This document shows, one piece after another, positions 1,569 through 32,899 of a DNA stretch of 64,000 nucleotides. Under the pieces are notes generated by a model. It ran no database searches, was not told the origin of the DNA, and saw only the letters and a list, made by a program, of their open reading frames with translations. Positions within the stretch are counted from its first letter, which is position 1. Every line of letters starts with the position of its first letter. The stretch is from NCBI RefSeq assembly GCF_046119375.1, contig NW_027362765.1, forward strand, positions 434,186,001-434,250,000, given 5' to 3'. The stretch is from Phyllobates terribilis (taxonomy: Eukaryota). Made by a program: the position numbers and the translations under genes.

Positions 1569-1570
1569 GT

Positions 1571-4426: not shown

Positions 4427-4449
4427 GTCACTATAGCAGAAACTCTATT

Positions 4450-5720: not shown

Positions 5721-5776
5721 CCTGCCTGGTATCGGAAAGTGCCCGAACCCCAGGCTTTGGGCAGATGGGGCAAATA

Positions 5777-6308: not shown

Positions 6309-7074
6309 ATATTTACATCTATGCTATCCTTTAATTCTTTTTTGGGCAAATTTACTTTATTGACCTCTTCATTCACCAAAAATCTGAATTGTTTGGGGAC
6401 GTGACATTATAATGATCTTTTAGTGTGTTCCTTATATTGCTGATAATGATTTTTCTGTTCTCCCTTTATAACATGATAAACATCTATCATTATTTCATTG
6501 AATAATTCATCCACAACTCACACTTTTAAACTCATTGCTTAACTCCATCATCAAAAGAAGGGATGTCTATAGTAGTGTTGAGCCACCCCCGTAGTGTTCG
6601 AGTTCGGTTCGGTTCGTCGAACACCCGTGTGTTCGCCGAACTGTTCGTCGAACTGTTCGTCGAACACCTTCGAACACCGTTAAAACCAATGGCAGGCAAA
6701 CAAAAACACATAGAAACACATAGAAAACACCTTCAAAGGTGTCCAAAAGCTGGCAAACTGCTCAGAAGACATAACTAACACATGGAAAAGTGACAAGTAC
6801 ATATAGTCATGCGAAAATAAAAGAGGTGGAGGAGTAAAAGGAGGGGGAGACACAGATATAGGCATGTCATGCCCTTCTAAAATCCAAAAAGTGAGAAGCC
6901 GACACGGCCAGTCCGCTCCTGCCCGTGCCACCTCCGTGTCGCCGGGTTTGTGCCAGAGCCGCGGTGAACCCTGATAGCCAGCCCCCCTCTCCCAATACTG
7001 GTGCCTGTCCGCTGGTGGGTCGAGCGAGCCCCCCTGTGGTGGAGGCAGCTCTAAGCTTTTTAATTTAAATTGTC

Positions 7075-7343
7075 TCTCTAATTTGAATGAATACACTTTA
7101 AATCCATTTACAAGGATCTATTGGAGGGCAAGTCTCATGCCAGCAGCCGCGTAATTCCAGCTCCAGTAGCGTCCACTAAAGCTGCTGCAGTTAAAAAGCT
7201 TTTATAAGGATCGAGCTCGGCTGTCCACCGCAAGGCATCCTACTGCCAGTCCCAGCCCCTATGCCTTGGGGTGCCTCCTGATGCTCTTCACTGAGTATCC
7301 CGTGGTCCCGAAGCATTTCCTTTGAAAAAATGAAGTGTCCAAA
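7075..7343 (+). rRNA. 18S rRNA-derived fragment (degenerate, non-functional) inside hAT copy 1
   Basis: ACACTTTAAATCC...GGATCTATTGGAGGGCAAGTCT.ATGCCAGCAGCCGCGTAATTCCAGCTCCA.TAGCG...GCTGCAGTTAAAAAGCT...GATGCTCTT.ACTGAGT.TCCCG...TTTGAAAAAAT is colinear with vertebrate 18S around helix 18 and the start of V4. Confidence 0.9.
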
Positions 7344-7454
7344 CTACAGGTGGTGTAGCTTGCTTAACAGCCGGGATAATCCGCTGACTAGCAGACCCTG
7401 CTACTAGGCACAAAGTATTTCCTGGGCTAGATGCAGTTAAAAATTTGGAATTAG

Positions 7455-9280
7455 ATACTCTCGTTGGATGCTGAGAAAGCATTCCTTAGAGTCTCCTGGC
7501 ACGCCATATATGATTCTCTTAAAAAGCTTGGGGTAGGGGTCTAGGGGACCCTTTTATAGCCAAAATCACGGCCCTGTATCGCAATACGTCACCTAGGCTG
7601 AAGATAAATGGAACTGTAGCACCCTGAGGGCTCGATTGCTTCAGAGGTATTGCACCTCACCCAGAGGTGTGACATCTCACTCTCAGGTAAGGATGTAGTG
7701 TGGATCAGGACCCGACACCTGCATGCATTACACCACATTGCCGTGGGGCAGGGCGACCAATATGCCCCTGAGATGGGCACGACAGTCCCTGTCCCTGGCT
7801 GGAGTGGGGGGAGGGAACACTGAGGAAGGGGAACCCTGTAGTGCAGGAGCAGGGAGGAAGCAGTTCCTGGGTGCATTGAGAAGGGAGTATAAAAGGTGGG
7901 CACCATCTTAGTTCAGTGCAGAGAAGTCTGAGCAGAAGTGGCAGGGAGCAGGGGCTCTGCATGAGCTCTGCTCCGGAGGCGGGCCTAGTAACAGAGGCCC
8001 AGGCCTGGAAGAGGGAGAAGGAAGGAAGAGGAGCGGAGAAGGCTCCAGGAACGAGGAACGAAGGGATCTCAGGGGTGCGGACGGGCGAGTCGCCACCGCA
8101 CGCCAGAATCCACCTGCGTGGAGGGGTCAGGCCAAAGGGGGAGACCGGTCCCCGAAACTAGTGGAGGCAGGAAACGACCCTCAGCTAGAAACAGGAGGCT
8201 GTGACATTTTATGTGGCGCAGCCCCTCGCTACACCCGCTAGGAAGGCACCACATAGGGTCAGGGAAACTGGCGCCAAGTTTACCAAGAGGAGGCCCGAGG
8301 TAGCCGGACAGAAGGGTTGGTAAGAAAGGCCAGACAAAGGACACACAAAGGGGGTCCTGTGAAGTGCTCCAAAGTTATCTGGGAGTTGTCTGAGCCCCTC
8401 ACCTGGTGAGCACAGTACGACGTGGTCAGCCGTTACCTGCAGACGTGGTCTGGATAATAAGAACTGTGAGTAAAGGCCCTGGACTGCATCACTGACTCCG
8501 TGTCATTACTGCTGCTGCCCTGCACCATCACCCCCATCCTCCGCATACACTGCCCTGAGGCTATACTCCTCCCGTGGGGAGTTATGCTACGCTCTGCTGC
8601 ACCCACAACACCAGCCTCAGCGGTCTGCCCTGGAGCGGCGGTTCACTCTGACCGCAATCCACGGGTGGCGTAGTCGGACATTTAAACATCAAAACCACAT
8701 AAATAGTTCCGCCACTGGTTTGACCGCCCTGAGCCACGGAACCGGGTTGCCGCCACGGAGACTACAACCACCAGCATCCACCAAAAAGGGTCCGGCTCCG
8801 GGTGTCCCAAGGCCCAGGGGGCGCGTCAGAACATTTTCATCACCTTTCACAATCACCAATGGGACAAGGCAGGGATGTTCTCTGTCCCCTCTCTTATACA
8901 TCCTAGTGACGGAGCACCTGCTCTCATCAATTCGCCAAAACCCCAATATTAGGTGGATTGAGGTGGGAGGCACCGAGTACAAGTGCTCTCTATTTGCTGA
9001 TGATGTCCTAGTATATATCACTCAATCACATATATCCATCCATGCTGTTATGGCTGAAATAGATCACTTTGTTACATGGTCAAATTTTAAAATCAATGCA
9101 GCGAAGTCTGAGGCCCTCGATGCCTCCCTCCCCAAATCCATATAGGATTCCATCCAGTCCAACTTTCCCTGTGCCTGGCCCTCACAGGGTATCAAATACT
9201 TAGGAATTCCTATTCATAGAGACCTCTCCCATCTATGTTATCTTAATTTTGGGCCCTTTATTGAACAACTCCATACAGAC
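7455..9280 (+). pseudogene. L1-clade LINE reverse transcriptase fragment, interrupted by a solo LTR
   Basis: ILSLDAEKAF.RVSW at ~7455-7500 and RLKING up to 7614, resuming at 8833 with FSSPF...GTRQGCSLSPLL...FADD...KINAAKSEAL. It is contiguous in copy 3 (45370-46122). Confidence 0.85.
7615..8828 (+). mobile_element. Solo LTR (1214 bp), Gypsy-like, 4-bp TSD GAAC
   Basis: TGTAGCACC...GGCGCGTCA ends. GAAC at 7611-7614 and 8829-8832. AGTAAA at ~8469. Absent at the equivalent site of copy 3 (~45957-45965). Confidence 0.85.
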
Positions 9281-9350
9281 CACGGTTGGCAAGTTAGAAC
9301 TGTAAGATTCACTACGTGAACCACTGGTGTTTTGTGGAAAAGCACATGTA

Positions 9351-10723
9351 CACTGTGTTCCAAATTATTATGCAAAAAGTGTTTAGGAGTGATAAGGGAA
9401 GAATTTGTTTGTTTGTCAGTTAAACTCATTGATGGTGATGTGTGTCAGGGCTCTTTATATCACTGTAAGCAATTGCAGACACCAGTGCTAATTAGTTTGG
9501 CAGGTGTGTCCAATGAAAGGCAAGACTACTTAAGAAGGCTCTCTCACATTATTCAGCAGCCTACATTTTCTGCCAAAATGGGAAAGAAAAAGGATGTGTC
9601 GGCTGCTGAGAAGCAACAAATTGTGGAGTGTTTAGGTCAAGGCATGACTACAATCAACATTGTGCGATGATCAGGATGAAGTGTCTTGGCAATCAAGAAG
9701 TATGTAGCTGATTCACAGTACACACGTGTGCGTGCTGATAAGGGCAAATTGAGGACTCTTTCCTACAGGCAATTACGTCAGGTTGAAAGAGCAGCGGCAA
9801 AAAAGCCTTGTCATAGCAGCAGACAAGTTTTTGAAGCTGCTTGTGCCTCCAACGTCCCCCGAACAACAAGATGCCGGGTCCTTCAGAGGTTTGCAGCTGT
9901 GCATATGCCATCCTGTCGACCTCCTCTATCCACTTCACACAAGCAGAAACGGCTCCAGTGGGCCAAACATTACATGAAGACTGATTTCAAAACTGTTTTG
10001 TTCACGGATGAGTGCCGTGCAGCGCTCGATGGTCCAGATGGATGGAGTGGAGGATGGCTGGTTGATGGACACCCCACGCAAACATGGCTACAGCGCCAAC
10101 AAGGAGGAGGTGGAGTAATGTTTTGGGCTGGAATCATGGGGAGAGAGATTGTCGGCCCCTTTAGGATCCCTGAAGGCGCTAAAGATGAACTCCATAATGT
10201 ATGTGGATTTTCTCAAACAGCACTTCCTGCCATGGTTCAAGAAGAAGAACCATGTATTTCACAGCAAGATCATTTTTCTGCATGATAATGCACCATCTCA
10301 TGCTGCACATAAAACATCTGCATCTCTGGCTGATATGGGCATAAAAGGGGACAAACTTATGGTGTGCCCCCATGCTCCCCTGACCTCTACCCCATTCAGA
10401 ACCTTTGGAGCATCATTAAAAGGAGTGTCTATGATGGCGGGAGGCAGTTCACATCTAAGCAACAGCTCTGGGGAGGGTACTCTGTCCTCATGCAAAACAA
10501 TTGAAGCAGAAACCATCCAAAACCTGACAAATTCAATGGACGAGAGAGTTCAGAAGCTCCTTTCGAACAAGGCGTCCTATGTGAAAATGTAACATCACCT
10601 AGAATAAAGTTTTGAGTTGAAAACTGTTTGATTTCAGTTTCTAACAACCTGCTAATGCTTATAATTTCAAAAATGACCATTTTTTTGGTCTTTATTAAAA
10701 TGAAAAGGTTGATCGAAAAGTTT
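9351..10723 (+). mobile_element. Tc1/mariner element with DD37E spacing, decayed, one TIR lost
   Basis: TA|CACTGTGTTCCAAATTATTATGCA left end. MGKKKDVSAAEKQQIVECL at 9578, VLFTDECRAALDGPDGW, HDNAPSH, and 37 residues to the E position (mutated to Q in DLYPIQN). Frameshifted. Confidence 0.85.
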
Positions 10724-10830
10724 GGGGGATCTAAGAGTGTGGCAACCCAGTAGTCATGATTACTTCGAATTCTGACAATATGAGGGTCATGCTGCAGGTA
10801 GTGCAGCAAGAAGGCACTTATGTGTCTTGC
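10724..10830 (-). pseudogene. Remnant of a second hAT transposase (continues at 9281-9350 beyond the Tc1)
   Basis: Encodes AFLLHYLQHDPHIVRIRSNHDYWVATLLDP. 9281-9350 matches the TCAFPQNT...SNLPTV segment of the main ORF (11505-11570). Confidence 0.8.
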
Positions 10831-11049
10831 GGATCTCGGAGCCCCAAAATTATTTTCCGGGCTAGATGCAGCTAAAAATTATTTTTAATTTTAAATCTGG
10901 TGGAGCTTATTATAGATGGCCTAATAGGATCAGTGCTGCACACTGCTACAAAGCCCAGATTATTTTCCAGTCAAGATACAGATAAACATGATTAGTAATT
11001 TGAAAGCTTAAAACGGTTGGTAGGGTGATTTTAAACAATCATCAAGCTT

Positions 11050-14000
11050 TTACTCTCCCCAGGATGACACAGGGGTAGAAAAGTCGTTTCGGATCCATGA
11101 TTTGTTCATCTTTATGAACGTGAGTCTGTCTACATTATCAGTGGAGAGCCGCGTGCGCTTATCTGTCAGCACACCACCAGCAGCGCTGAACACACGTTCA
11201 GACAGAACGCTGGCTGCGGGGCATGACAAGATCTCCAAGGCGCAAGTGGCTAGCTCCGGCCATTTATCCAGATTGGAAGCCCAAAAAGAGCAAGGGTCCA
11301 GTGACACAGTCGTGGCTTCAATGTTTACTTGGAGATACTCCTGTACCATCGTCTCTAGGAGTTGACTATGTGTCAGACTTCTTGTCTCCTGTGGCCTTGC
11401 AAAGGATGGGCTAAAAAAGTGGTGAAATGATTCCGCAAAATTGATGTTACCACCAGATACTGTGGTTCTGTTATGGTTTGAGTGCTGAACACTTGACGGT
11501 CCCACGGTTGGCAAGTTGGAACTGTGAGATTCACTACGTGCACCTCTGGTATTTTGTGGAAAAGCACATGTAAGATTCTGCAACAGTCTCTGCTGATACT
11601 CCTGCATGCGTGCATCCCTTTCTATGGCAGGAATAATTTCTGCAAATTTACTTTTGTACCGGGGATCTAACAGTGTGGCAACCCAGTAGTCAGGATTATT
11701 TCTAATTCTCACAATTCGAGGGTCATGTTGCAGCAAGAAGGCACTCATGTGTGTTGCGCATCCAGGAGCACCAAGTCCCTGTTGTGTTGGTGGCGAGGTA
11801 ACAATCATGCTTCCTTCCTCTGTCCTCTCCCCCCAACCTCGCACAACAGAAATGTGATCAAGGTCTCCCTCATCTAATGAGTCTTCCATCAGTTCGTCCT
11901 CCACTTCTTCCTGGGCTCCTGCACCTTCCTCACTAGTTTGGCTGCTACCATGCGCCCTGGTAAAACCATCTCCCCCACCCTCCCATGCCTGCCGCCTTGG
12001 TGCTGCCGACCGTCTGGACCTTGCAGATGTTAGCCCTTCCGCATACAACTCCTCCTCCTCTACTTCCTCCACCTCCTCTTGTGCCACCACCTGACTCCGA
12101 ATTCTGTTTAACATGTGCTCCAGCATGTAAATCACCGGAATAGTGATGCTGATAATGACATCGTCAGCACTAAACATCTTCGTCGCCATTTCAAAACTGT
12201 GCAGAAGGGTGCATAGGTCCCTGATCTGAGACCACTCCTCCAGCGTGATTTGCCCCACCTCTGAATCTCGTTGGCCCAGGCTATACGTCAGAACGTATTG
12301 CACCAGGGCTTGTCGGTGCTGCCACAGTCGCTGCAACATGTGCAGAGTTGAATTCCACCGGGTAGGCACATCGCATTTTAGCCGGTGAAGTGGCAGGCCC
12401 AACGACTTCTGTAGAGATGTAAGTCGCTGAGCTGCGGGATGCGAACGGCGGAAGTGAGCACACAGCGACCGTGCCCTCTGCAGAAGGCCATCTAGTCTGG
12501 GATAGTGGGCTAAAAATTGCTGGACAACCAGGTTCAACACGTGAGCCATACAAGGCACGTGTGTGACATTGCCCCGGCGAAGGGCCGCACCCAGGTTTGC
12601 AGCATTGTCGCAAACGGCCTTCCCTGGTTTCAGGTCCAGTGGAGACAACCATTCATGAAATTGGTTCTCCAGAGCTGACCACAACTCCTCAGCTGTGTGA
12701 CTCACATTTCCCAGACATTTCAATGTAAAAACCGCCTGATGACGTTGAGCCCTACTGCCAGCATAGTAAGGAGGTGTGCAGGATCCCTTCTGCGCAGTTA
12801 GAAAGCTTGTGGCATGACCAGACAGGCTTTGGGTGCAGGTGGAAGACCGAGAGGAGGTTGAGGAGGCAGAAGCAGTGGAGGAACTTTGACATAAAGAGGA
12901 TTGACGCACAACTCGTGGGAACGGCAAGACTTGGACAGCAGCCCCTTGTCCTGCTGTCACCATAGTTACCCAGTGCCCAGTCAGTGACATGTAACGCCCC
13001 TGTCCATGCCTACTCGTCCAAGTGTCTGTGGTGAAATGCACCCTGTCACACACAGAGTTTCTCAAAGAAGCGGTGATGTTGTGTGCGACATGCTGGTGGA
13101 GCGCAGGCACACCTTTCTTTGAGAAGTAGTGCCGACTGGGCATCTGGTGCTGGGGCACTGCGACGGACATAAGGTCTCGAAAATCCTCTGTGTCCACCAG
13201 GCGGAAAGGCAGCATTTCTGTAGCCAAGAGCTTGCAGATGGTGAAATTCAACCTCTTAGCTTTCTCATGGCTAGGAGGAAATGGTCTTTTACTTGTCCAC
13301 ATCTGAGGGACCGAGGGCTGGCTATTGTGCTTAGACGGGGTTGATAAGGGTGTCCCCGGCAAACTGCCGGTCTGTGAGGAAGATGCAGGCGGACATGTTA
13401 GGTTGCCTTGATCCAAAGGTGGTGCTATCGATGTCGGACAGCGCTCAACACCAGCTGCTGTTACCACCTCCAAAGAAAATGATGACCTGCCAATCATGCT
13501 GGCTGTTGCGGGTAAAGAGGTTGCAGGTCTGCGCCCCAAAACAGGTGTGACTGCTGTCCCCCCAGTCACAGAGGATGAAGAGGCCGCGGATGCACAAGAT
13601 ATGGCAGACGGTGGTTGGCCCGGCCGGCTAGGCCGCATTGTAGCACACTGAGCTTCCCACTGCAACTTATGCTTCATGTCCATGTGCCGGTTCATGCATG
13701 AAGTACTCAAACTATGTATTTTTTGGCCTCTACTTAGCTTTTGCTGACAAATGTTACAGATAACACGAGTTGGGTCATCTTTATCGATCTGAAAAAATGC
13801 CCAGGCTATGCAAGGCTTAGCACCCATGCGACCTGAAGAGCCACCACGACTTGTGGTGAGAGGCAGAGTTGTGTTTGAGGATGCAGTTGTTGACGTGCTT
13901 CCAGTACTACGTCTCTGTCCAGGAAGGCGCAACCTGACCTCGTCGTCACTAGCATCTTCCTCCACCTCCTCTGCTGACCTCATCTCTTGGCTGACTGTGG

Positions 14001-14742
14001 GTTGACAGTAAGTGGGATCTCCAAACTCATCATCATCACCCTGTGTGTTATCACACCCGTCGTCCTCAGAGCCAACCTGTTCCTGCCCTGACAAAAAACT
14101 AAAGTTTTCGCTCCAATCGGGTATTTGAGTCTTATCATCGTCTTCCTCATTGTCTCCACCAACAGGAGTTACAGTTTGGGAATGAGGGTCTACATTATGG
14201 TCAGAACCTTCTGCGTCTGGTCCTGGATCCGACTCATAAAGATTCTGGGCATCAGTGCAGATCATTTCCTCGTCTGGATTCACAGAAGCGCTGGAGTCGA
14301 CCTCGGATTCCCAGGCTATAGTATGAGTAAACAGCTCTGCAGACTCAACCATCTGTTCTACCTCATACTCAGACGGGCAGCTGGAGATTTGGGAGCTGTG
14401 AGGAAGCAAGTGCGATTTGGGTGACACCTTTGAGGACTGGAGTATTTGTGATGTTGAAGTTGATGTGGAGGAGAGCCCACTTAAAGGAGCACTTGATATC
14501 CGTTGAAGCACCTGCTGTTTTTGTGCCTCATCTGGAATTTGTAGCGATTGGCGTGGCCGTAAGAAAGGGATCTTATTACATTGTCCGCTAAAAGAAGTAG
14601 ACATTTTAGTTTGGCTGGAAGATGGTCTTTCTTCTGCAGATGTTACTGTTGCTTTAACACCTACCCCACGGACACAACCTTTTTTCCCCTTCCCAACACG
14701 CCTATTCCCCTTTCCACCAGCAGCAGGCCTTTTTCCACTCAT
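11050..14742 (-). CDS. hAT transposase, 1230 aa, uninterrupted ORF (BED finger, DDE core, C-terminal dimerisation domain)
   Basis: BED finger (AWAFF...VICNICQQKLSRG...STSCMNRHMDMKH). Catalytic motifs TTDTWTS, VCDNAAN, CMAH, TRWNS and SERVFS. C-terminal ELATCALEILSCPAAS...RTRLS...LTFIKMN. Confidence 0.92.
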   Translation of the reverse strand: MSGKRPAAGGKGNRRVGKGKKGCVRGVGVKATVTSAEERPSSSQTKMSTSFSGQCNKIPFLRPRQSLQIPDEAQKQQVLQRISSAPLSGLSSTSTSTSQILQSSKVSPKSHLLPHSSQISSCPSEYEVEQMVESAELFTHTIAWESEVDSSASVNPDEEMICTDAQNLYESDPGPDAEGSDHNVDPHSQTVTPVGGDNEEDDDKTQIPDWSENFSFLSGQEQVGSEDDGCDNTQGDDDEFGDPTYCQPTVSQEMRSAEEVEEDASDDEVRLRLPGQRRSTGSTSTTASSNTTLPLTTSRGGSSGRMGAKPCIAWAFFQIDKDDPTRVICNICQQKLSRGQKIHSLSTSCMNRHMDMKHKLQWEAQCATMRPSRPGQPPSAISCASAASSSSVTGGTAVTPVLGRRPATSLPATASMIGRSSFSLEVVTAAGVERCPTSIAPPLDQGNLTCPPASSSQTGSLPGTPLSTPSKHNSQPSVPQMWTSKRPFPPSHEKAKRLNFTICKLLATEMLPFRLVDTEDFRDLMSVAVPQHQMPSRHYFSKKGVPALHQHVAHNITASLRNSVCDRVHFTTDTWTSRHGQGRYMSLTGHWVTMVTAGQGAAVQVLPFPRVVRQSSLCQSSSTASASSTSSRSSTCTQSLSGHATSFLTAQKGSCTPPYYAGSRAQRHQAVFTLKCLGNVSHTAEELWSALENQFHEWLSPLDLKPGKAVCDNAANLGAALRRGNVTHVPCMAHVLNLVVQQFLAHYPRLDGLLQRARSLCAHFRRSHPAAQRLTSLQKSLGLPLHRLKCDVPTRWNSTLHMLQRLWQHRQALVQYVLTYSLGQRDSEVGQITLEEWSQIRDLCTLLHSFEMATKMFSADDVIISITIPVIYMLEHMLNRIRSQVVAQEEVEEVEEEELYAEGLTSARSRRSAAPRRQAWEGGGDGFTRAHGSSQTSEEGAGAQEEVEDELMEDSLDEGDLDHISVVRGWGERTEEGSMIVTSPPTQQGLGAPGCATHMSAFLLQHDPRIVRIRNNPDYWVATLLDPRYKSKFAEIIPAIERDARMQEYQQRLLQNLTCAFPQNTRGARSESHSSNLPTVGPSSVQHSNHNRTTVSGGNINFAESFHHFFSPSFARPQETRSLTHSQLLETMVQEYLQVNIEATTVSLDPCSFWASNLDKWPELATCALEILSCPAASVLSERVFSAAGGVLTDKRTRLSTDNVDRLTFIKMNKSWIRNDFSTPVSSWGE

Positions 14743-14856
14743 TTTGGTGGTTAACTAATTCACAACTCTGGAGTTGTTTGCACAAAAAAACAATGGATGG
14801 TAACCGAGCAGAGCTGAGTGGCCAAACTGTGGTATTAGGCCAAAACTATTGGCTGG

Positions 14857-15420
14857 GTTAGATGCAGAAAAAAATATATTCACTATATTTTTTCAGAGGT
14901 ACTGTAGATGCAGATAAAAATTAGTTTTAATTTGCAACCTGATGGAGGTCAGTATAGATGGACTAATAGAGAAAGTCCGACACACTGCTAGAAGGCCAAA
15001 TATTTTTTCAGAGCTAGATGCAGAAAAAAATTATATTCAGTTTGCAACCTGATGGAGGTCAGTATAGATGGATTAATAGAACAAGACCCACACACAGCTA
15101 GAAGCCCAATATTTTTTCAGAGGTAGATGCAGAAAAAAATATATTCAGTTTGCAACCTGATGGAGGTCAGTATAGATGGACTAATACAACAAGTCCCACA
15201 CACAGCTAGAAGCCCAAATATTTTTTCAGAGGTACTGTAGATGCAGATAAAAATTATTTTTAATTTGCAACCTGATGGACGTCAGTATAGATGGACTAAT
15301 ACAACAAGTCCCACACACAGCTAGAAGCCCAAATATTTTTTCAGAGGTACTGTAGATGCAGATAAAAATTAGTTTTAATTTGCAACCTGATGGAGGTCAG
15401 TATAGATGGACTAATAGAAT
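14857..15420 (-). repeat. ~110-bp tandem repeat upstream of the transposase, ~5 copies
   Basis: GACTAATA(G/C)A recurs at 14961, 15071, 15179, 15294 and 15409. Same unit as 21921-23088. Confidence 0.9.
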
Positions 15421-16536
15421 GATGCTATGCCCAAAAGATTTTACTTCACTAGGTGCAGTAAAAAAATTGGTATTCTATACACAGGTGGTATATCTTGCAA
15501 CACAGATAGGCTACTCCACTGACTAACACACTCTGCAATAGGCCAAAAAGGATTAGCTTTGCTAGATTCAGCCAAATGCTGTGAAAAAAACTTGCACAGC
15601 ACTGGCACAGACCTGCCTGGCAAAAACTGATAGGAACTGATGTAACCTAGTCCTGAAAAGGACTCCAATTACAATTAGTCTTTACTCCCACAACCTATCT
15701 ATTTAAGAGCACAGACCTCCCTGATAAAAGTCGTAGGAAATGCTGTAACCTAGTCCTTAAAAGGACTGCAATCACAACTATTTCCTACTCCCAAGCTATC
15801 TGTATATTTGTGCGAAAATTGGCTTGAAATTAACAAGGTATAGCGCACACAGCAACAGCGGTGCCGTCTAACATGCAGCTGCAGCAGTGAGAAAATGGTG
15901 GCGATGGGGAAAATGGCTTGGTCTTATAGGGCAAGGACATGTGACATACACTGCCAATGACACATGCCCTTGCTTGTGTGAAAAAAAGCACTTCGCTCCG
16001 TGTGTGCGCTGCTGATAGGCTCACAGATTGCACCTCCCCACTGCAAATGCGGGAAAGAGAAAAAAAAATGGAGATCTTCATTGTTCCTGCAGAGATCCAT
16101 CCCCTGCCCCTCCCCCCACCCCGCTGTACACTCAAACTGCGTATTAACATTAATTTTCATCATTACTGAGAAAAAATCCAGTTATGATTTTGGTGCACGA
16201 ACAGTTATCGAACATAACCTCGAACAGCCGAATTTTTCTCAAATTGTTCGTGTTCGCCGAACGGCTCGAACACCGCCCAAAACAGCTCGAATTTGAGATT
16301 GGCGAACAGTTCGAGTAGAACAACGCTCATCTCTAGTCTATAGCCATAAATATAATAATGTCTTAGGAGACAAGGGGGTCAGTGGGCTTATACCACTAAT
16401 GCGGACTCCTTTTCCCGTTGGCATAATACTACTCAGACAACAGAGAGTGAAGGTAAAACAGTGTGGCAATACTTTATTGGGCCACCAAACATACAATAAC
16501 ATAGAACATTCCCAGCAAAATACCCAAGATGGTGCA

Positions 16537-20358: not shown

Positions 20359-20407
20359 CCACAGTAAATTGATTTTGGAAATGACCATTCTACCTTTTTT
20401 ATTTCAG

Positions 20408-20725
20408 GTTTAGACATGTCTTTAAGACTTGTAAATGGCAATGGTCAATGTAACGGTCGTGTTGAAATCCTCTATAACGGAGCGTGGGGAACTGTGTGTG
20501 ATGATTATTGGGATATTAATGCTGCACAAGTTGTATGCCGGCAATTAAAATGTGGCCAAGCTCTGGCATTTAATGGCAGTGCTGCATTTGGCCAAGGACA
20601 AGGACTAATTGTATTGGATGATGTGCAATGTACCGGTAATGAACAACACGTATGGGACTGTCCACACCAACCATTTACAGTACATAACTGTGGACACAAT
20701 GAAGATGCTGGCGTCGTCTGCTCAG
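20408..20725 (+). CDS. Exon encoding group B SRCR domain B1
   Basis: AG at 20406-7 and GT at 20726-7. 318 bp, phase 1-1, 8 Cys. Confidence 0.92.
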
Positions 20726-21920: not shown

Positions 21921-23088
21921 TCTATTAGTCCATTTATACTGACCTCCATCAGGTTGCAAATTAAAAATAATTTTTTTCTTCATTTAGCTCTGAAAAAATA
22001 TTTGGGCTTCTAGCAGTGTGTGGGACTTGGTCTATTAGTCCATCTATACTGACCTCCATCAGGTTGCAAATTAAAAATAATTTTTTTCTTCATTTAGCTC
22101 TGAAAAAATATTTGGGCTTCTAGCAGTGTGTGGGACTTGGTCTATTAGTCCATCTATACTGACCTCCATCAGGTTGCAAATTAAAAATATTTTTTTTCTT
22201 CATTTAGCTCTGAAAAAATATTTGGGCTTCTAGCAGTGTGTGGGACTTGTTCTATTAGTCCTTCTATACTGACGTCCAGCAGGTTGCAAATTGAATATAA
22301 TTTTTTTCTGCATCTAGCTCTGAAAAAATATTTGGGCTTCTAGCGGTGTGTGGGACTTGGTCTATTAGTCCATCTATACTGACCTCCATCAGGTTGCAAA
22401 TTAAAAATAATTTTTTTCTGCATCTAGCTCTGAAAAAATATTTGGGCTTCTAGCAGTGTGTGGGACTTGGTCTATTAGTCCATCTATACTGACCTCCATC
22501 AGGTTGCAAATTAAAAATAATTTTTTTCTTCATTTAGCTCTGAAAAAATATTTGGGCTTCTAGCAGTGTGTGGGACTTGTTCTATTAGTCCTTCTATACT
22601 GACCTCCAGCAGGTTGCAAATTGAATATAATTTTTTTCTGCATCTAGCTCTGAAAAAATATTTGGGCTTCTAGCGGTGTGTGGGACTTGGTCTATTAGTC
22701 CATCTATACTGACCTCCATCAGGTTGCAAATTAAAAATAATTTTTTTCTGCATCTAGCTCTGAAAAAATATTTGGGCTTCTAGCGGTGTTTGGGACTTGG
22801 TCTATTAGTCCATCTATACTGACCTCCATCAGGTTGCAAATTAAAAATAATTTTTTTCTGCATCTAGCTCTGAAAAAATATTTGGGCTTCTAGCAGTGTG
22901 TGGGACTTGGTCTATTAGTCCATCTATACTGACCTCCATCAGGTTGCAAATTGAATAAAAAAATTTTCTGCATCTAGCTCTGAAAAAATATTTGGGCTTC
23001 TAGCGGTGTGTGGGACTTGGTCTATTAGTCCATCTATACTGACCTCCATCAGGTTGCAAATTCAAAATAATTTTTTTCTGCATCTAAC
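21921..23088 (+). repeat. 110-bp tandem repeat, ~10.6 copies
   Basis: TCTATTAGTC at 21921, 22031, 22141 ... 23021 with an exact 110-bp period. Ends ~115 bp before the transposase ATG. Confidence 0.97.
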
Positions 23089-23201
23089 CCAGCCAATAGT
23101 TTTGGCCTAATACCACAGTTTGGCCACTCAGCTCTGCTCGGTTACCATCCATTGTTTTTTGTGCAAACAACTCCAGAGTTGTGAATTAGTTAACCACCAA
23201 A

Positions 23202-26200
23202 ATGAGTGGAAAAAGGCCTGCTGCTGGTGGAAAGGGGAATAGGCGTGTTGGAAAGGGGAAAAAAGGTTGTGTCCGTGGGGTAGGTGCAGAAGAAAGACCA
23301 TCTTCCAGCCAAACTAAAATGTCTACTTCTTTTAGCGGACAATGTGATAAGATCCCTTTCTTACGGCCACGCCAATCGCTACAAATTCCAGATGAGGCAC
23401 AAAAACAGCAGGTGCTTCAACGGATATCAAGTGCTCCTTTAAGTGGGCTCTCCTCCACATCAACTTCAACATCACAAATACTCCAGTCCTCAAAGGTGTC
23501 ACCCAAATCGCACTTGCTTCCTCACAGCTCCCAAATCTCCAGCTGCCCGTCTGAGTATGAGGTAGAACAGATGGTTGAGTCTGCAGAGCTGTTTACTCAT
23601 ACTATAGCCTGGGAATCAGAGGTCGACTCCAGCGCTTCTGTGAATCCAGACGAGGAAATGATCTGCACTGATGCCCAGAATCTTTATGAGTCGGATCCAG
23701 GACCAGACGCAGAAGGTTCTGACCATAATGTAGACCCTCATTCCCAAACTGTAACTCCTGTTGGTGGAGACAATGAGGAAGACGATGATAAGACTCAAAT
23801 ACCTGATTGGAGCGACAACTTTAGTTTTTTGTCAGGGCAGGAACAGGTTGGCTCTGAGGACGACGGGTGTGATAACGCACAGGGTGATGATGATGAGGTC
23901 GGAGATCCCACTTACTGTCAACCCACAGTCAGCCAAGAGATGAGGTCAGCAGAGGAGGTGGAGGAAGATGCTAGTGACGACGAGGTCAGGTTGCGCCTTC
24001 CTGGACAGAGACGTAGTACTGGAAGCACGTCAACAACTGCATCCTCAAACACAACTCTGCCTCTCACCACAAGTCGTGGTGGCTCTTCAGGTCGCATGGG
24101 TGCTAAGCCTTGCATAGCCTGGGCATTTTTTCAGATCGATAAAGATGACCCAACTCGTGTTATCTGTAACATTTGTCAGCAAAAGCTAAGTAGAGGCCAA
24201 AAAATACATAGTTTGAGTACTTCATGCATGAACCGGCACATGGACATGAAGCATAAGTTGCAGTGGGAAGCTCAGTGTGCTACAATGCGGTCTAGCCGGC
24301 CGGGCCAACCACCGTCTGCCATATCTTGTGCATCCGCGGCCTCTTCATCCTCTGTGACTGGGGGGACAGCAGTCACACCTGTTTTGGGGCGCAGACCTGC
24401 CACCTCTTTACCCGCAACAGCCAGCGTGATTGGCAGGTCATCATTTTCTTTGGAGGTGGTAACACCAGCTGGTCTTGAGCGCTGTCCGACATCGATAGCA
24501 CCACCTTTGGATCAAGGCAACCTAACATGTCCGCCTGCATCTGCCTCACAGACCGGCAGTTTGCCGGGGACACCCTTATCAACCCCGTCTAAGCACAATA
24601 GCCAGCCCTCGGTCCCTCAGATGTGGACAAGTAAAAGACCATTTCCTCCTAGCCATGAGAAAGCTAAGAGGTTGAATTTCACCATCTGCAAGCTCTTGGC
24701 TACAGAAATGCTGCCTTTCCGCCTGGTGGACACAGAGGATTTTCGAGACCTTATGTCCGTCGCAGTGCCCCAGTACCAGATGCCCAGTCGGCACTACTTC
24801 TCAAAGAAAGGTGTGCCTGCGCTCCACCAGCATGTCGCACACAACATCACCGCTTCATTGAGAAACTCTGTGTGACAGGGTGTATTTCACCACAGACACT
24901 TGGACGAGTAGGCATGGACAGGGGCGTTACATGTCGCTGACTGGGCACTGGGTAACTATGGTGACAGCAGGACAAGGGGCTGCTGTCCAAGTCTTGCCGT
25001 CCCCACGAGTTGTGCGTCAATCCTCTTTATGTCATTTTTCCTCCACTGCTTCTGCCTCCTCAACCTCCTCTCGGTCTTCCACCTGCACCCAAAGCCTGTC
25101 TGGTCATGCCACAAGCTTTCTAACTGCGCAGAAGGGATCCTGCACACCTCCTTACTATGCTGGCAGTAGGGCTCAACGTCATCAGGCGGTTTTTACATTG
25201 AAATGTCTGGGAAATGTGAGTCACACAGCTGAGGAGTTGTGGTCAGCTCTGGAGAACCAATTTCATGAATGGTTGTCTCCACTGGACCTGAAACCAGGGA
25301 AGGCCGTGTGCGACAATGCTGCAAACCTGGGTGCGGCCCTTCGCCGGGGCAGTGTCACACACGTGCCTTGTATGGCTCACGTGTTGAACCTGGTTGTCCA
25401 GCAATTTTTAGCCCACTATCCCAGACTAGATGGCCTTCTGCAGAGGGCACGGTCGCTGTGTGCTCACTTCCGCCGTTCGCATCCCGCAGCTCAGCGACTT
25501 ACATCTCTACAGAAGTCGTTGGGCCTGCCACTTCACCGGCTAAAATGCGATGTGCCTACCCGGTGGAATTCAACTCTGCACATGTTGCAGCGACTGTGGC
25601 AGCACCGACAAGCCCTGGTGCAATACGTTCTGACGTATAGCCTGGGCCAACGAGATTCAGAGGTGGGGCAAATCACGCTGGAGGAGTGGTCTCAGATCAG
25701 GGACCTATGCACCCTTCTGCACAGTTTTGAAATGGCGACGAAGATGTTTAGTGCTGACGATGCCATTATCAGCATGACTATTCCGGTGATTTACATGCTG
25801 GAGCACATGTTAAACAGAATTCGGAGTCAGGTGGTGGCACAAGAGGAGGTGGAGGAAGTAGAGGAGGAGGAGTTGTATGCGGAAGGGCTAACATCTGCAA
25901 GGTCCAGACGGTCGGCAGCACCAGGGCGGCAGGCATGTGAGGGTGGGGGAGATGATTTTACCAGGGCGCATGGTAGCAGCCAAACTAGTGAGGAAGGTGC
26001 AGGAGCCCAGGAAGAAGTGGAGGACGAACTGATGGAAGACTCATCAGATGAGGGAGACCTTGATCACATTTCTGTTGTGCGAGGTTGGGGGGAGAGGACA
26101 GAGGAAGGAAGCATGATTGTTACCTCGCCACCAACACAACAGGGACTTGGTGCTCCTGGATGCGCAACACACATGAGTGCCTTCTTGCTGCACTACCTGC

Positions 26201-26880
26201 AACATGACCCTCGAATTGTGAGAATTAGAAATAATCCTGACTACTGGGTTGCCACACTGTTAGATCCCCAGTACAAAAGTAAATTTGCAGAAATTATTCC
26301 TGCCATAGAAAGGGATGCACGCATGCAGGAGTATCAGCAGAGACTGTTGCAGAATCTTACATGTGCTTTTCCACAAAATACCAGTGGTGCACGTAGTGAA
26401 TCTCACAGTTCCAACTTGCCAACCGTGGGACCGTCAAGTGTTCAGCACTCAAACCGTAACAGAACCACAGTATCTGCTGGTAACATCAATTTTGCGGAAT
26501 CATTTCACCACTTTTTTAGCCCATCCTTTGCAAGGCCACAGGAGACAAGAAGTCTGACACATAGTCAACGCCTAGAGACGATGGTACAGGAGTATCTCCA
26601 AGTAAACATTGAAGCCACGACTGTGTCACTGGACCCTTGCTCTTTTTGGGCTTCCAATCTGGATAAATGGCCGGAGCTAGCCACTTACGCCTTGGAGATC
26701 TTGTCATGCCCCGCAGCCAGCGTTCTGTCTGAACGTGTGTTCAGCGCTGCTGGTGGTGTGCTGACAGATAAGCGCACGCGGCTCTCCACTGATAATGTAG
26801 ACAGACTCACGTTCATAAAGATGAACAAATCATGGATCCGAAACGACTTTTCTACCCCTGTGTCATCCTGGGGAGAGTAA
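23202..26880 (+). pseudogene. hAT transposase, copy 2, with a single frameshift
   Basis: ORFs 23202-24875 and 24880-26880. A 2-bp loss in the (TG)n run at ~24870 (GTG TGA CAG versus GTG TGT GAC) splits it. Also has a 21-bp in-frame N-terminal deletion. Confidence 0.92.
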
Positions 26881-27204
26881 AAGCTTGATGATTGGTTAAA
26901 ATCACCCTACCAACCGTTTTAAGCTTTCAAATTACTAATCATGTTTATCTGTATCTTGACTGGAAAATAATTTGGGCTTTGTAGCAGTGTGCAGCACTGA
27001 TCCTATTAGGCCATCTATAATAAGCTTCACCAGATTTAAAATTAAAAATAATTTTTAGCTGCATCTAGCCCGGAAAATAATTTTGGGGCTCCGAGATGCG
27101 CAAGACACATAAGTGCCTTCTTGCTGCACTACCTGCAGCATGACCCTCATATTGTCAGAATTCGAAGTAATCATGACTACTGGGTTGCCACACTCTTAGA
27201 TCCC

Positions 27205-28579
27205 CCAAACTTTTCGATCAACCTTTTCATTTTAATAAAGACCAAAAAAATGGTCATTTTTGAAATTATAAGCATTAGCAGGTTGTTAGAAACTGAAATC
27301 AAACAGTTTTCAACTCAAAACTTTATTCTAGGTGATGTTACATTTTCACATAGGACGCCTTGTTCGAAAGGAGCTTCTGAACTCTCTCGTCCATTGAATT
27401 TGTCAGGTTTTGGATGGTTTCTGCTTCAATTGTTTTGCATGAGGACAGAATACCCTCCCAGAGCTGTTGCTTAGATGTGAACTGCCTCCCGCCATCATAG
27501 ACACTCCTTTTAATGATGCTCCAAAGGTTCTGAATGGGGTAGAGGTCAGGGGAGCATGGGGGTCACACCATAAGTTTGTCCCCTTTTATGCCCATATCAG
27601 CCAGAGATGCAGATGTTTTATGTGCAGCATGAGATGGTGCATTATCATGCAGAAAAATGATCTTGCTGTGAAATACACGGTTCTTCTTCTTGAACCATGG
27701 CAGGAAGTGCTGTTTGAGAAAATCCACATACATTATGGAGTTCATCTTTAGCGCCTTCAGGGATCCTAAAGGGGCCGACAATCTCTCTCCCCATGATTCC
27801 AGCCCAAAACATTACTCCACCTCCTCCTTGTTGGCGCTGTAGCCGTGTTTGCGTGGGGTGTCCATCAACCAGCCATCCTCCACTCCATTCATCTGGACCA
27901 TCGAGCGCTGCACGGCACTCATCCGTGAACAAAACAGTTTTGAAATCAGTCTTCATGTAATGTTTGGCCCACTGGAGCCGTTTCTGCTTGTGTGAAGTGG
28001 ATAGAGGAGGTCGACAGGATGGCGTATGCACAGCTGCAAACCTCTGAAGTACCCTGCATCTTGTTGTTTGGGGGACGTTGGAGGCACAAGCAGCTTCAAA
28101 AACTTGTCTGCTGCTATGACAAGGCTTATTTGCCGCTGCTCTTTCAACCTGACGTAATTGCCTGTAGGAAAGAGTCCTCAATTTGCCCTTATCAGCACGC
28201 ACACGTGTGTACTGTGAATCAGCTACATACTTCTTGATTGCCAAGACACTTCATCCTGATCATCGCACAATGTTGATTGTAGTCATGCCTTGACCTAAAC
28301 ACTCCACAATTTGTTGCTTCTCAGCAGCCGACACATCCTTTTTCTTTCCCATTTTGGCAGAAAATGTAGGCTGCTTAATAATGTGAGAGAGCCTTCTTAA
28401 GTAGTCTTGCCTTTCATTGGACACACCTGCCAAACTAATTAGCACAGGTGTCTGCAATTGCTTACAGTGATATAAAGAGCCCTGACACACATCACCATCA
28501 ATGAGTTTAACTGACAAACAAACAAATTCTTCCCTTATCACTCCTAAACACTTTTTGCATAATAATTTGGAACGCGGTG
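27205..28579 (-). mobile_element. DD37E Tc1 element inside hAT copy 2
   Basis: Mirror of 9351-10723. TIR ends at 28579 followed by TA. ORF fragments 28260-28598, 27645-28244 and 27563-27781. Confidence 0.85.
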
Positions 28580-28659
28580 TACATGTGCTTTTCCACAAAA
28601 CACCAGTGGTTCACGTAGTGAATCTTACAGTTCTAACTTGCCAACCGTGGTCTGTATGG

Positions 28660-30472
28660 AATTGTTCAATAAAGGGCCCAAAATTAAGATAACATAGATG
28701 GGAGAGATCTCTATGAATAGGAATTCCTAAGTATTTGATACCCTGTGAGGGCCAGGCAAAGGGAAAGTTGGACTGGATGGAATCCTATATGGATTTAGGG
28801 AGGGAGACATCGAGGGCCTCAGACTTCGCTGCATTGATTTTAAAATTTTACCATGTAACAAAGTGATCTATTTCAGCCATAACAGCAGGGACGGATATAT
28901 GTGATTGAGTGATATATACTAGGACATCATCAGCAAATAGAGAGCACTTGTACTCGGTGCCTCCCACCTCAATCCACCTAATATTGGGGTTATGGCGAAT
29001 TGATGAGAGCAGGTGCTCCGTCACTAGGATGTATAAGAGAGGGGACAGAGGACATCCCTGCCTTGTCCCATTGGTGATTGTGAAAGGTGATGAAAATGTT
29101 CTGACGCACCCCCTGGGCCTTGGGACACCCGGAGCCGGACCCTTTTTGGTGGATGCTGGTGGTTGTAGTCTTCGTGGCGGCGATCCGGTTCCGTGGCTCA
29201 GGGCGGTCAAACCAGTGGCGGAACTATTTATGTGGTTTTGATGTTTAAATGTCCGACTACGCCACCCGTGGATTGCGGTCAGAGTGAACCGCCGCTACAG
29301 GGCAGACCGCTAAGGCTGGTGTTGTGGGTGCAGCAGAGCGTAGCATAACTCCCCACGGGAGGAGTATAGCCTCAGGGCAGTGTATGCGGAGGATGGGGGT
29401 GATGGTGCAGGGCAGCAGCAGTAACGACACGGAGTCAGTGATGCAGTTCAGGGCCTTTACTCACAGTTCTTATTATCCAGACCACGTCTGCAGTAACGGC
29501 TGCCCACGTCGTACTGTGCTCACCAGGTGAGGGGCTCAGACAACTCCCAGATAACTTTGGAGCGCTTCACAGGACCCCCTTTGTGTGTCCTTTGTCTGGC
29601 CTTTCTTACCAACACTTCTGTCCGGCTGCCTCGGGCCTCCTCTTGGTAAACTTGGCGCCAGTTTCCCTGACCCTATGTGGTGCCTTCCTAGCGGGTGGAG
29701 CAAGGGGCTGCGCCACATAAAATGTCAGAGCCTCCGGTTTCTAGCTGAGGGTCGTTTCCTGCCTCCACTAGTTCGGGGACCGGTCTCCCCCTTTGGCCTG
29801 ACCCCTCCACGCAGGTGGATTCGGGCGTGCGGTGGCGACTCGCCCGTCCGCACCCCTGGGATCCCTTCATTCCTCGTTCCTGGAGCCTTCTCCGCTCCTC
29901 TTCCTTCCTTCTCCCTCTTGCAGGCCTGGGCCTCTGTTACTAGGCCCGCCTCCGGAGCAGAGCTCATGCAGAGCCCCTGCTCCCTGCCACTTCTGCTCAG
30001 ACTTCTCTGCACTGAACTAAGATGGTGCCCACCTTTTATACTCCCTTCTCAATGCACCCAGGAACTGCTTCCTCCCTGCTCCTGCACTGCAGGGTTCCCC
30101 TTCCTCAGTGTTCCCTCCCCCCACTCCAGCCAGGGACAGGGACTGTCGTGCCCATCTCAGGGGCATATTGGTCGCCCTGCCCCACGGCAATGTGGTGTAA
30201 TGCATGCAGGTGTCGGGTCCTGATCCACACTCCATCCTTATCTGAGAGTGAGATATCACACCTCTGGGTGAGGTGCAATACGTCTGTAGCAACCGAGCCC
30301 TCGGTGCTACAGTTCCATTTATCTTCAGCCTAGGTGACGTATTGTGATACAGGGCCGTGATTTTGGCTATAAAAGGGGCCCTAGACCCCTACCCCAAGCT
30401 TTTTAAGAGAATCATATATGGCGTGCCAGGAGACTCTATGGAATGCTTTCTCAGCATCCAACGAGAGTATCT
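28660..30472 (-). pseudogene. L1 RT fragment interrupted by a solo LTR (copy 2)
   Basis: GTRQGCPLSPLL...FADD (ORF 28848-29210). Mirror of 7455-9280. Confidence 0.85.
29102..30311 (-). mobile_element. Solo LTR (1210 bp), 4-bp TSD GTTC
   Basis: TGACGCACC...GGTGCTACA, with GTTC at 29098-29101 and 30312-30315. Confidence 0.88.
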
Positions 30473-30581
30473 ACTTACAAATTTTTAACTGCATCTAGCC
30501 CACGAAATACTTTGTGCCTAGTAGCAGTGTCTGCTAGTCAGCGGATTATCCCGGCTGTTAAGCAAGCTACACCACCTGTAG

Positions 30582-30850
30582 TTTGGACACTTAATTTTTT
30601 CAAAGGAAATGCTACGGGACCACGGGATACTTAGTGAAGAGCATCAGGAGGCACCCCAAGGCATAGGGGCTGGGACTGGCACTAGGATGCCTTGCGGTGG
30701 ACAGCCGAGCTCGATACTTATAAAAGCTTTTTAACTGCAGCAGCTTTAGTGGACGCTACTGGAGCTGGAATTACGCGGCTGCTGGCATGAGACTTGCCCT
30801 CCAATAGATCCTTGTAAATGGATTTAAAGTGTATTCATTCAAATTAGAGG
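30582..30850 (-). rRNA. 18S rRNA-derived fragment (degenerate) inside hAT copy 2
   Basis: Reverse complement of the 7075-7343 fragment (CTGGAATTACGCGGCTGCTGGCATGAGACTTGCCCTCCAATAGATCC). Confidence 0.9.
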
Positions 30851-32899
30851 GACAATTTAAATTAAAAAGCTTAGAGCTGCCTCCACCACAGGGGGGCTCT
30901 CTCGACCCACCAGCGGACAGGCACCAGTATTGGGAGAGGGGGGCTGGCCGTCAGGGTTCACCGCGGCTCTGGCACAAACCCGGCGACACGGAGGTGGCAC
31001 GGGCAGGAGCGGACTGGCCGTCTCGGCTTCTCACTTTTTGGATTTTAGAAGGGCATGACATGCCTATATCTATGTCTCCCCCTCCTTTTACTCCTCCACC
31101 TCTTTTCTTTTCGCATGACTATATGTACTTGTCACTTTTCCATGTGTTAGTTGTGTCTTCTGAGCAGTTTGTCAGCTTTTGGACACCTTTGAAGGTGTTT
31201 TCTATGTGTTTCTATGTGTTTTTGTTTGCCTGCCATTGGTTTTAACGGTGTTCGAAGGTGTTCGACGAACAGTTCGACGAACAGTTCGGCGAACACACGG
31301 GTGTTCGACGAACCGAACCGAACTCGAACACTACGGGGGTGGCTCAACACTATTTACCAATTCATCTAAATCCTTAGTGACATATGACTTATTGGTATGT
31401 CTTATGTCGGCCCCTTAAATTTGATGCAGGCCCAGCTCAGCTGTTAATTCGGCTGTTAACCTGTAAAATATTGCTGTCAAGTGTGATTTACAGCAGACAT
31501 CTTGTAAGGCGCGTTGTCCTAACCACACATCAGTAGTGCACTCACAAGGCGATCTTGAGCGGGTGTCAAATAGGTTGTCATGTGGTGCCAGGTATCTGGT
31601 GCCTTATTTATAACAGTTATACTCAGGCTAAAAATACCTGTTACCTCCCATTTAATGTATTGGGGCTGGGACTTTGTCTTGGTTTCCTTTCCAATTTTCC
31701 TCAACCAACTTTCCTTTCTAACGAGTGTTGGGATTTTGCATTTTACCCATTGCCATGATATATATTTACATCTATGCTTTGTATTTGGGCATCCTTTATT
31801 TTCTTTTGGGCAAATTTTTTTTATTCACCTCTTTAGTCACCAAAAATGTGAATTTTTTGGAAACGTGACATTATATTGAACTTTAGTGTGTTCCTTATAG
31901 TGGTGATAATGATTCCTGTGATATCCTTTTTTAACAAGAGAAACATCTGTCTTTATTACATTGAATAAATCATCCACTATCCACACTTTTAAACTCTTTG
32001 TTTAACTCTGTCATCAAAAGAAGGGGTGTCTATAGCCATAATTAAAATAATATCTGTGGAGATAGGGGGCAGTGGGTGCATTCTTCCGCACCAGGGCTCA
32101 TCCCACTGGTGCGGACTCCTTTTCCCATAGGCATAATACTACTCAGACAACACAGGGTGAAAGTAAAACAGTGTGTCAATACTTTATAGAGCCACCAAAC
32201 AGACAATAACATATAGAACATTCCCAGTAAAATACTCAAGATTGTGCAAAGTTACAGAGTCTCACTTTCCACTGACTCACTGGGATTAGAGCAGCTGCGA
32301 ATCTGAGGCTTCCAGAACTGACAACCCCCACTAGTGGCACCACGCTTTTGGCGGGCACCCACAGAGTGGAGGTAATGACAAGCTTAGGAAGCTGACAGTC
32401 CATTTAGGAACTTGGCCAGGCAACAGTATGATGCCCAACCTAGCTACTTTGAACGTCTCCACTGAGCCAGGTCACCGAATTGTCCCAACCTGAATTCTCC
32501 AAATGTATCCCTGGGGGTCAAGTGACTGGAGGTTCAATGTTATTCAATGGAGTAGATATGTGTTATTCCTGCTGGGGCTGTGGTCCCCAAAACTGACATC
32601 CTGTAGAAAGTCAAAACTATATCCCTCTTAATGGAGCCATGTTGTCCTACTTGTTGCTCTGGCAATTCACTCTGATTACTTTTTCAGAACTATAGAAATC
32701 CTTTTTTATACCCACATCTATGTCTCCGGTCATCATCCACAGATCAGGGGGGAGGTGGAATGAGTTTCACTCTCATCGTTTGAGAATTTAATCGATCTAC
32801 ATAGTTTGTTCTTCTCTGTTTTGTGGGTCAACAAGCCACAGGGTCCACACAATGGTCAATCAAAAACATGCATTGTTCACAGACCCTGTAAATATCAAC

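Follow-up and report, generated by a model that had tools for sequence, protein, structure and literature searches.

A 64,000-nucleotide stretch of the genome of the poison frog Phyllobates terribilis (assembly GCF_046119375.1, contig NW_027362765.1, positions 434,186,001 to 434,250,000 of the forward strand; hereafter the window) carries copies of a hAT DNA transposon of about 10 kb in which a transposase gene is followed by decayed pieces of other repeats. We consider it very probable that this is a high-copy, Ac-type hAT family of the frog whose mobile unit is the whole 10-kb segment from one terminal inverted repeat (TIR) to the other, and that its cargo accumulated step by step in a master lineage before being amplified. 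The feature itself is genuine, and it is mobile as a single unit. The most fitting description is that of an element of the same kind as hobo_AC of the lizard Anolis carolinensis, apparently much more abundant; the phenomenon itself is already known, and no new mechanism is revealed.

When the window was compared with itself, a 9.8-kb segment (6573-16335) recurred in inverted orientation at 21004-31352. An initial annotation had described two near-identical complete copies in opposite orientation, each with its own perfect 8-bp target site duplication (TSD), together with an empty site for the first of them, and all of this held up in our analysis:

6573 to 16335, minus strand: copy 1, a complete hAT element of 9763 bp, with the TSD GTCTATAG at 6565-6572 and 16336-16343.
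21004 to 31352, plus strand: copy 2, complete and with the same cargo as copy 1, with the TSD TTTACCAA on both sides.
32028 to 32035, plus strand: a single target octamer (one GTCTATAG), the paralogous empty site of copy 1.

A perfect repeat of eight letters is expected by chance at 1.5e-5 per element, and the 8-bp duplication that marks hAT insertions was found in both of the complete copies. The empty site lies in a paralogous unit of a host array of SRCR exons, and an alignment of copy 1's flanks over it has 59 differences in 399 columns and is free of gaps at the junction. Shared flanking sequence beyond the TSDs, as a segmental duplication would leave, was confined among six 600-bp flanks to one common stretch (192 bp at 80%, inverted, 85 and 410 bp from the element ends), and this stretch belongs to an older tandem duplication of the host and not to a co-duplication with the element.

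The ends are those of a hAT transposon as well, with a short and imperfect TIR pair (9 of 11 bases match) and subterminal GTTCG/CGAAC motifs, of which 9 fall within 236 bp at the left end and 12 within 228 bp at the right end, a density about 25-30 times that of the window as a whole (1.6 per kb). The target octamers follow nTnnnnAn at four of six TIR ends, both complete TSDs included (P=3e-4; the six include one end from a different family that shares the TIR start), and this target consensus is described as a mark of the Ac family (PMC8961557).

Between the ends, the order of modules is identical in copies 1 and 2, as had been annotated. In copy 1 it runs from the left to the right end of the element as follows:

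15419 to 16335, minus strand: left end with TIR, subterminal GTTCG/CGAAC motifs and 5' spacer.
14885 to 15418, minus strand: 110-bp variable number tandem repeat (VNTR) upstream of the transposase gene, 4.7 units.
11050 to 14742, minus strand: transposase open reading frame (ORF) of 1230 amino acids with zf-BED, the motifs FTTDTW/CDNAAN/CMAH/PTRWNS/LSERVFS and the hAT dimerisation domain.
10835 to 11010, minus strand: degenerate units of 110 bp that follow the gene (nhmmer E 1e-15 and 4e-6).
10725 to 10847, minus strand: second-gene remnant, left by another copy of the element's transposase gene, matching 11661-11774, 11% diverged.
9351 to 10724, plus strand: Tc1 element at a TA inside the second-gene remnant, with stops and a frameshift common to copies 1 and 2.
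9280 to 9350, minus strand: second-gene remnant matching 11502-11572, 6% diverged.
8829 to 9279, plus strand: 3' part of an internal L1-type reverse transcriptase (RT) fragment, with a stop common to copies 1 and 2 and none in copy 3.
7615 to 8828, plus strand: insertion of 1214 bp resembling a solo long terminal repeat (LTR), with TG..CA ends and the 4-bp duplication GAAC.
7446 to 7614, plus strand: 5' part of the L1-type RT fragment, continuous with 8829-9279 in copy 3.
7346 to 7445, minus strand: element-derived stretch like the 5' spacer and a 110-bp unit.
7085 to 7345, plus strand: decayed internal 18S rRNA fragment, with a good Rfam alignment to about 7210.
6573 to 7084, minus strand: right end with TIR and subterminal motifs (6573-6800), then a GC-rich stretch.

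Copies 1 and 2 differ by 0.95% in Tc1, 0.98% in the transposase gene, 1.2-1.6% in the ends and 2.1-2.6% in the 18S, L1 and LTR pieces. Nearly all of their difference in length comes from the VNTR (4.7 units in copy 1, 10.6 in copy 2 and 2.6 in copy 3). All four copies in the window share the GC-rich stretch that separates the 18S piece from the right end (6803-7084), and the hAT family occupies about half of the window (31,710 bp).

The L1-type fragment (7446-9279), split by the LTR insertion, matches Pfam RVT_1, while the Tc1 piece matches HTH_Tnp_Tc3_2 only weakly (E 2.5e-4, below the curated cut-off), and its far TIR was not found. The LTR insertion contains TATAAA at 7888 and AGTAAA at 8469, and no relative of it was found elsewhere in the window. 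The Rfam model SSU_rRNA_eukarya matches at 7053-7172 (63.8 bits); beyond about 7210 the 18S fragment presumably extends to 7345. Neither the L1 nor the 18S piece has ends or TSDs. The downstream 110-bp units are direct repeats of the upstream VNTR, and both second-gene remnants lie in the same orientation as the main gene. What had been listed as a separate “remnant hAT” derives from the element's own transposase gene, and the supposed pieces of four transposon classes come down to three foreign transposon types. The lesions in the cargo, i.e., the stops and frameshift of Tc1 and the L1 stop, are common to copies 1 and 2, so that the cargo was already dead when it was copied; for the element it would have no function.

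Public sequencing runs carry the same unit. Among 24 listed runs, 16 share at least half of the sampled words from 6573-14880, under four organism labels; no RNA run is among the word-sharing runs listed. We aligned four runs to 5900-14880 at 90% likeness, a span that includes the right-end flank only; no contig across the insertion junction is among the 24 pieces listed. In three of the runs cargo and transposase are covered at a roughly even depth, with a collapse beyond the TIR: 6.2-11 in X10, 299-1702 in X11 (300-600 in most bins) and 1.7-4.6 million in X4 over cargo and gene, compared with 0, 0 and 1-2e4 in the flank bins. X10 and X11 have coverage in each of the 28 element bins and none in either flank bin. 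For X4, most bins reach a summed depth of 1.7-2.6 million, against 28-43 on three flank contigs. X10 contigs (6573-7568, 7564-9349, 9321-10277, 10693-11550 and 11552-14875) differ from copy 1 by about 0.5-1.6%. Contigs of X10 and X11, about 1% from copy 1, bridge the junctions 18S/L1/LTR and LTR/L1/remnant; an X10 contig bridges Tc1/remnant/gene end, and two X11 contigs exit the right TIR into other flanks. Distinct TSDs, common lesions, flat depth and bridging contigs together support the claim of the initial annotation that the segment between the TIRs moves as one.

Cargo depth is 6.2-7.9 compared with 10.5 for the gene in X10 and 299-372 compared with 413-517 in X11, i.e., about 60-75% of gene depth; the cargo form is therefore the majority of the gene's copies. 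Other forms are visible in the same runs. An LTR-less joint (7610 to 8829) occurs on 13 X4 contigs, and joints from 8828 to 12212-12215 in X4 and X11 (depth 69 in X11) connect the 3' end of the LTR to transposase-like sequence, a hint of another amplified hAT subfamily that has this LTR in a different position. To put a number on the family, we set the X4 depth and its 298,470 matched records against a simulation with random sequence, in which summed depth was inflated 18- to 28-fold if all unitigs were aligned and 3,000 copies at 0.7-2% divergence gave 125,000-478,000 unitigs. This points to roughly 3,000 copies, of the order of 10^3-10^4 given the rough calibration, and more if short unitigs had been filtered out.

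The 0.91-0.94 word share of eight runs labelled organism A might be taken to place copy 1 itself in several individuals, an idea we rejected because single variants recur when there are thousands of copies. Under labels B, C and D the share is 0.72-0.74, as expected from a family consensus about 1% from copy 1. We claim neither horizontal transfer nor presence in several species, as B, C and D may be related species or metagenome labels.

The transposase of copy 1 has the full set of hAT features. Pfam finds the zf-BED and hAT dimerisation domains, and Hermes structures match at E 4e-20 with the motifs of the catalytic region aligned; this alignment spans the second D, the CxxH, the W and the E regions, and we take the first catalytic D to be that of the TTDTW motif. 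BED finger, DDE core, CxxH and C-terminal dimerisation domain are thus all present, and the frame of copy 1 is open over 1230 amino acids, as an autonomous element would need. In the X10 and X11 contigs no frameshift is listed in this ORF. On the branch between copy 3 and copies 1 and 2, the ratio of non-synonymous to synonymous changes (dN/dS) is 0.63 (37.5 synonymous and 77.5 non-synonymous changes, P=0.02), with 0.42-0.51 over codons 1 to 490; for copies 1 and 2 the terminal branches are neutral, at 1.14 (19 changes) and 1.01 (13 changes). These values speak modestly for a working gene having been kept in the lineage. Its best protein matches, beside Hermes, are “ZBED4/6-like” proteins, with full-length anuran relatives at 43-52% identity. 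The closest partial matches come from Ranitomeya (75-88%), Phyllobates (82%) and Anomaloglossus (70%), and with this gradation the lineage looks long resident in dendrobatid frogs. In metagenome contigs, a protein search for relatives gave 37 pattern matches of which none was confirmed, and the terminal DNA pattern gave no matches.

Several points weigh against this picture of an abundant and self-sufficient unit. Complete copies with TSDs number only two, both within the window. None of the contigs listed spans the whole element, and at the remnant/Tc1 junction there are 30 letters on one side, one short of our bridging rule. The copy number rests on a simulation, as summed depth is no copy number. 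The ORF of copy 2 (23202-26880) is disrupted by a 2-bp deletion that shifts the frame, the gene of copy 3 is broken by stops and indels, and the ORF of copy 1 lacks, in frame, 9 bp that are present in copies 2 and 3, X10 and X11. In the catalytic core the internal-branch dN/dS is 0.86, and the test ignores transition bias. Finally, the RNA run X21 gave a single match in 12.7 million records (a quarter of the run, one library, tissue unspecified); X9, a DNA run from the same sample, shares 0.74 of the words.

How the cargo was acquired can be read in part from two further copies and an older fragment:

38125 to 59938, plus strand: copy 3, of an older subfamily, with a broken gene 3.6-3.7% from copies 1 and 2 and no right end inside the window.
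37372 to 38124, plus strand: older left-end fragment (about 91.5%) that hosts the copy 3 insertion.
62102 to 64000, minus strand: copy 4, made up of a right end, the 18S and L1 pieces and some of the LTR, running off the window.

Copy 4 repeats the right end, as had been annotated, at 0.47% from copy 2, whereas copy 3 was absent from the initial annotation. Copy 3 carries the L1 and 18S cargo without LTR and Tc1, and it keeps different parts of the second gene (45110-45370), followed directly by a longer L1 piece that lacks the stop. We read both lineages as descending from an element with a second, tandem and decaying transposase gene plus L1 and 18S. At the LTR site copy 3 has a single GAAC (empty site 45960-45963); the LTR therefore arrived after the split from the copy 3 lineage. 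Tc1 shows an insertion signature and may have arrived before or after this split, its site being deleted in copy 3. The initial annotation had held that the pieces were amplified together rather than nested independently: joint amplification stands, and the exclusion of nesting does not, the LTR and Tc1 each having inserted once into an ancestral element.

Two more features lie in and around copy 3. Between direct repeats at 43615-43726 and 44956-45067 it has extra cargo (43727-44955) with a broken frame, presumably similar to an SGNH-hydrolase-like retroelement ORF. A different element with the same TIR start (59939-62101, internal repeats 60609-62004) is inserted in the right part of copy 3 after an nTnnnnAn octamer, and copy 4 is nested inside it.

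We propose that the transposase would bind the TIRs and subterminal repeats, excise the entire segment that they enclose and insert this segment while duplicating 8 bp of target; excision and insertion are assumed from Hermes/Ac biochemistry, while the TSDs themselves are observed. The 3' third of the element would be the wreck of a second tandem transposase gene that turned into a harmless landing pad. The 18S and L1 RT pieces would have entered first, through template switching in gap repair or with later trimming by deletion; Tc1 would have inserted at its TA, and an LTR element, now a solo LTR, would have jumped into the L1 piece. One master would recently have burst, to judge from the 1-2% divergence, copying all passengers, most likely with transposase from the intact upstream gene.

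The second gene may have arisen by unequal exchange between the direct 110-bp repeats, or by nesting in an older copy followed by an end-swap. In the latter case a young copy in or beside an old, decayed one would have lost its own right end and adopted that of the old copy, with its junk, in one step. This concerns only the origin of the cargo form, as the unit would still move whole, and we regard it as a real possibility that falls somewhat short of probable. The family does nest in itself (copy 3 lies within the 37372 fragment), the remnants are 6-11% from the gene, and recombination between elements is reported for hobo_AC (PMC3014272). However, the direct 110-bp repeats around the gene would permit a tandem duplication, and the cargo cannot all have been gained in one step, since the LTR postdates the divergence from copy 3.

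A second alternative concerns autonomy. The cargo form could be effectively non-autonomous and be moved in trans by a shorter, cargo-free relative, its own ORF being merely young. That cargo depth reaches only about 60-75% of gene depth in X10 and X11 implies that other gene-bearing forms exist; the terminal branches look neutral, two of three genes are broken and RNA is almost absent in X21. However, most gene-bearing copies do have cargo, the ORF of copy 1 is open with all motifs, amino-acid changes are in deficit on the internal branch, and any DNA transposon copy should decay neutrally once inserted. We think this alternative unlikely. The element had been called autonomous: the open ORF of copy 1 stands, but given that one of three full genes is open and that one library has almost no RNA, autonomy of the cargo-bearing element is no more than likely.

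Capture of the whole cargo as one block of host DNA with old transposon fragments in it, by gap filling as in Pack-TIR transposons, would explain why the L1 and 18S pieces have neither ends nor TSDs and is the mechanism proposed for hobo_AC (PMC3014272) and Pack-TIRs (PMC8277862). However, stretches of the element itself alternate with the cargo, Tc1 lies inside a part of the element's transposase gene, and the duplication around the LTR and its empty site in copy 3 contradict this explanation for that piece, leaving it very improbable. Segmental duplication or misassembly, finally, is largely refuted and deserves next to no credence: the window does lie in a tandemly duplicated SRCR-exon array and has a 99.8% local duplication at 46128-53505, but the copies have different TSDs, opposite orientation, 1-2.6% divergence and unshared flanks, and the same architecture recurs in runs of other studies. 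We thus retain stepwise gain in a master lineage followed by amplification.

The surroundings of the copies show further features. Four SRCR exons belong to the tandemly duplicated host gene (18630-20811 and 34771-36895), which we take to be DMBT1-like. The target of copy 2 (20996-21003) and that of the older left-end fragment (37364-37372) lie only 19 bp apart in paralogous host-repeat units, which may reflect either a target hotspot or the replacement of an old insertion by a young one. Directly upstream of copy 1 is an LTR retrotransposon (1308-6308) with an integrase core (3435-3959) and short LTRs that are 83.5% identical.

In copy 3 a full-length long interspersed element (LINE), about 8.6 kb in size (59581 to 50977, minus strand), interrupts the 18S piece in its conserved core, with 4 bp (TTCC) overlapping at the two ends of the LINE. 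The LINE encodes a ZCCHC3-like ORF1, an endonuclease (EN) and an RT, a domain set from which we presume it to be Tx1-like. Its 3' part and ORF1/EN part are duplicated locally at 98.8-99.8% (duplicate 46128-50683); this may reflect either tandem duplication in the very recent past or an error of the assembly.

Tx1-clade elements are reported often to favour set targets, DNA transposons included, with Tx1L in Tx1D and Tx1-Mar in Mariner-N4_AMi as examples (PMC4494074). Copy 3 resembles these pairs in having a LINE of this kind inside a DNA transposon and differs from them in that it is a single insertion in 18S-derived cargo. One insertion cannot show target specificity, and we found no literature description of an 18S-targeting Tx1. 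It would be a bold extension, and one we hold to be quite improbable, that a long-resident hAT lineage is a major passive amplifier in poison-frog genomes, its 10-kb junk-laden form outnumbering leaner gene-bearing forms and contributing tens of megabases and thousands of 18S decoys that are targeted by a sequence-specific Tx1-clade LINE. If true, a LINE specific for rDNA would here be switching to a DNA transposon, perhaps as a stage on the way to composites of the Tx1L/Tx1D type.

Among known systems, hobo_AC is the closest. It is described as an autonomous hAT of 9-15 kb with about 290 copies that are 1.1% from their consensus, filled with partial Chapaev, RTE, CR1 and short interspersed element pieces and forming subfamilies that differ by cargo; according to its authors, its amplification raises the copy number of the passengers (PMC3014272). 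As a cargo-laden hAT the frog element represents the same phenomenon, and the novelty implied by the initial annotation falls away, an autonomous hAT that amplifies class 1 and class 2 fragments having already been published.

The differences from hobo_AC are scale, the 18S piece and the Tx1-like LINE in the 18S piece of copy 3. The roughly 3,000 copies estimated for the frog element contrast with about 290 for hobo_AC, which is outnumbered by its non-autonomous forms; hobo_AC filler is read as captured host DNA, whereas the frog LTR and Tc1 show insertion signatures; and the available description of hobo_AC mentions neither an 18S piece nor an internal VNTR (PMC3014272). hobo_AC is also thought to be a recent resident, in contrast to the frog element with relatives grading from 75-88% (Ranitomeya, Phyllobates) to 70% (Anomaloglossus), and the TIRs of the two differ beyond the TAG start in a comparison of the ends (PMC3014272).

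Other systems share single traits. Pack-hAT-N8_XT of Xenopus tropicalis is another case of frog hAT ends repeatedly moving foreign DNA, with distinct TSDs, but it is small and non-autonomous, with a 291-bp host-gene fragment and three copies (PMC8277862). The element described here differs from such Pack-TIRs, and from Pack-MULEs, in that it has a transposase gene and about 4 kb of cargo in which everything identified is transposon- or rDNA-derived and no captured host-gene piece was identified. It shares with Hermes and Ac the match at E 4e-20, zf-BED, dimerisation domain and nTnnnnAn octamers, whereas its transposase of 1230 amino acids has inserts and a long N-terminus of low complexity, as do other anuran “ZBED4/6-like” proteins. 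Pokey/mPok, SINE28 and Cassandra likewise spread an rDNA fragment on a mobile element, and the available table of rDNA in transposons from a review lists 5S, 28S and intergenic spacer pieces, with neither 18S nor hAT (PMC10946416). ToxhAT, a 14-kb hAT of wheat-pathogenic fungi, is described as moving its cargo as a unit; that cargo is a functional gene, while ours is decayed repeat DNA. The term “hAT” is absent from the available text of a review of giant transposons (PMC6431247), so the hobo_AC precedent appears to be little cited. The poison-frog genome papers that we consulted, in their available parts, mention hAT only as totals, and our literature search, for which Repbase and Dfam were outside the scope and may hold a consensus, found no description of this frog hAT family.

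These observations provide a second, apparently larger vertebrate case of a hAT transposon in which kilobases of filler are tolerated and in which empty sites record the order of cargo gain. The transposase may be a candidate vector for large cargo, as has been suggested for hobo_AC. For the repeat landscapes of poison frogs, they mean that part of the young Tc1, L1, LTR and 18S signal comes from a single hAT burst that is counted four times over, so that estimates of recent activity in the different transposon classes are biased.

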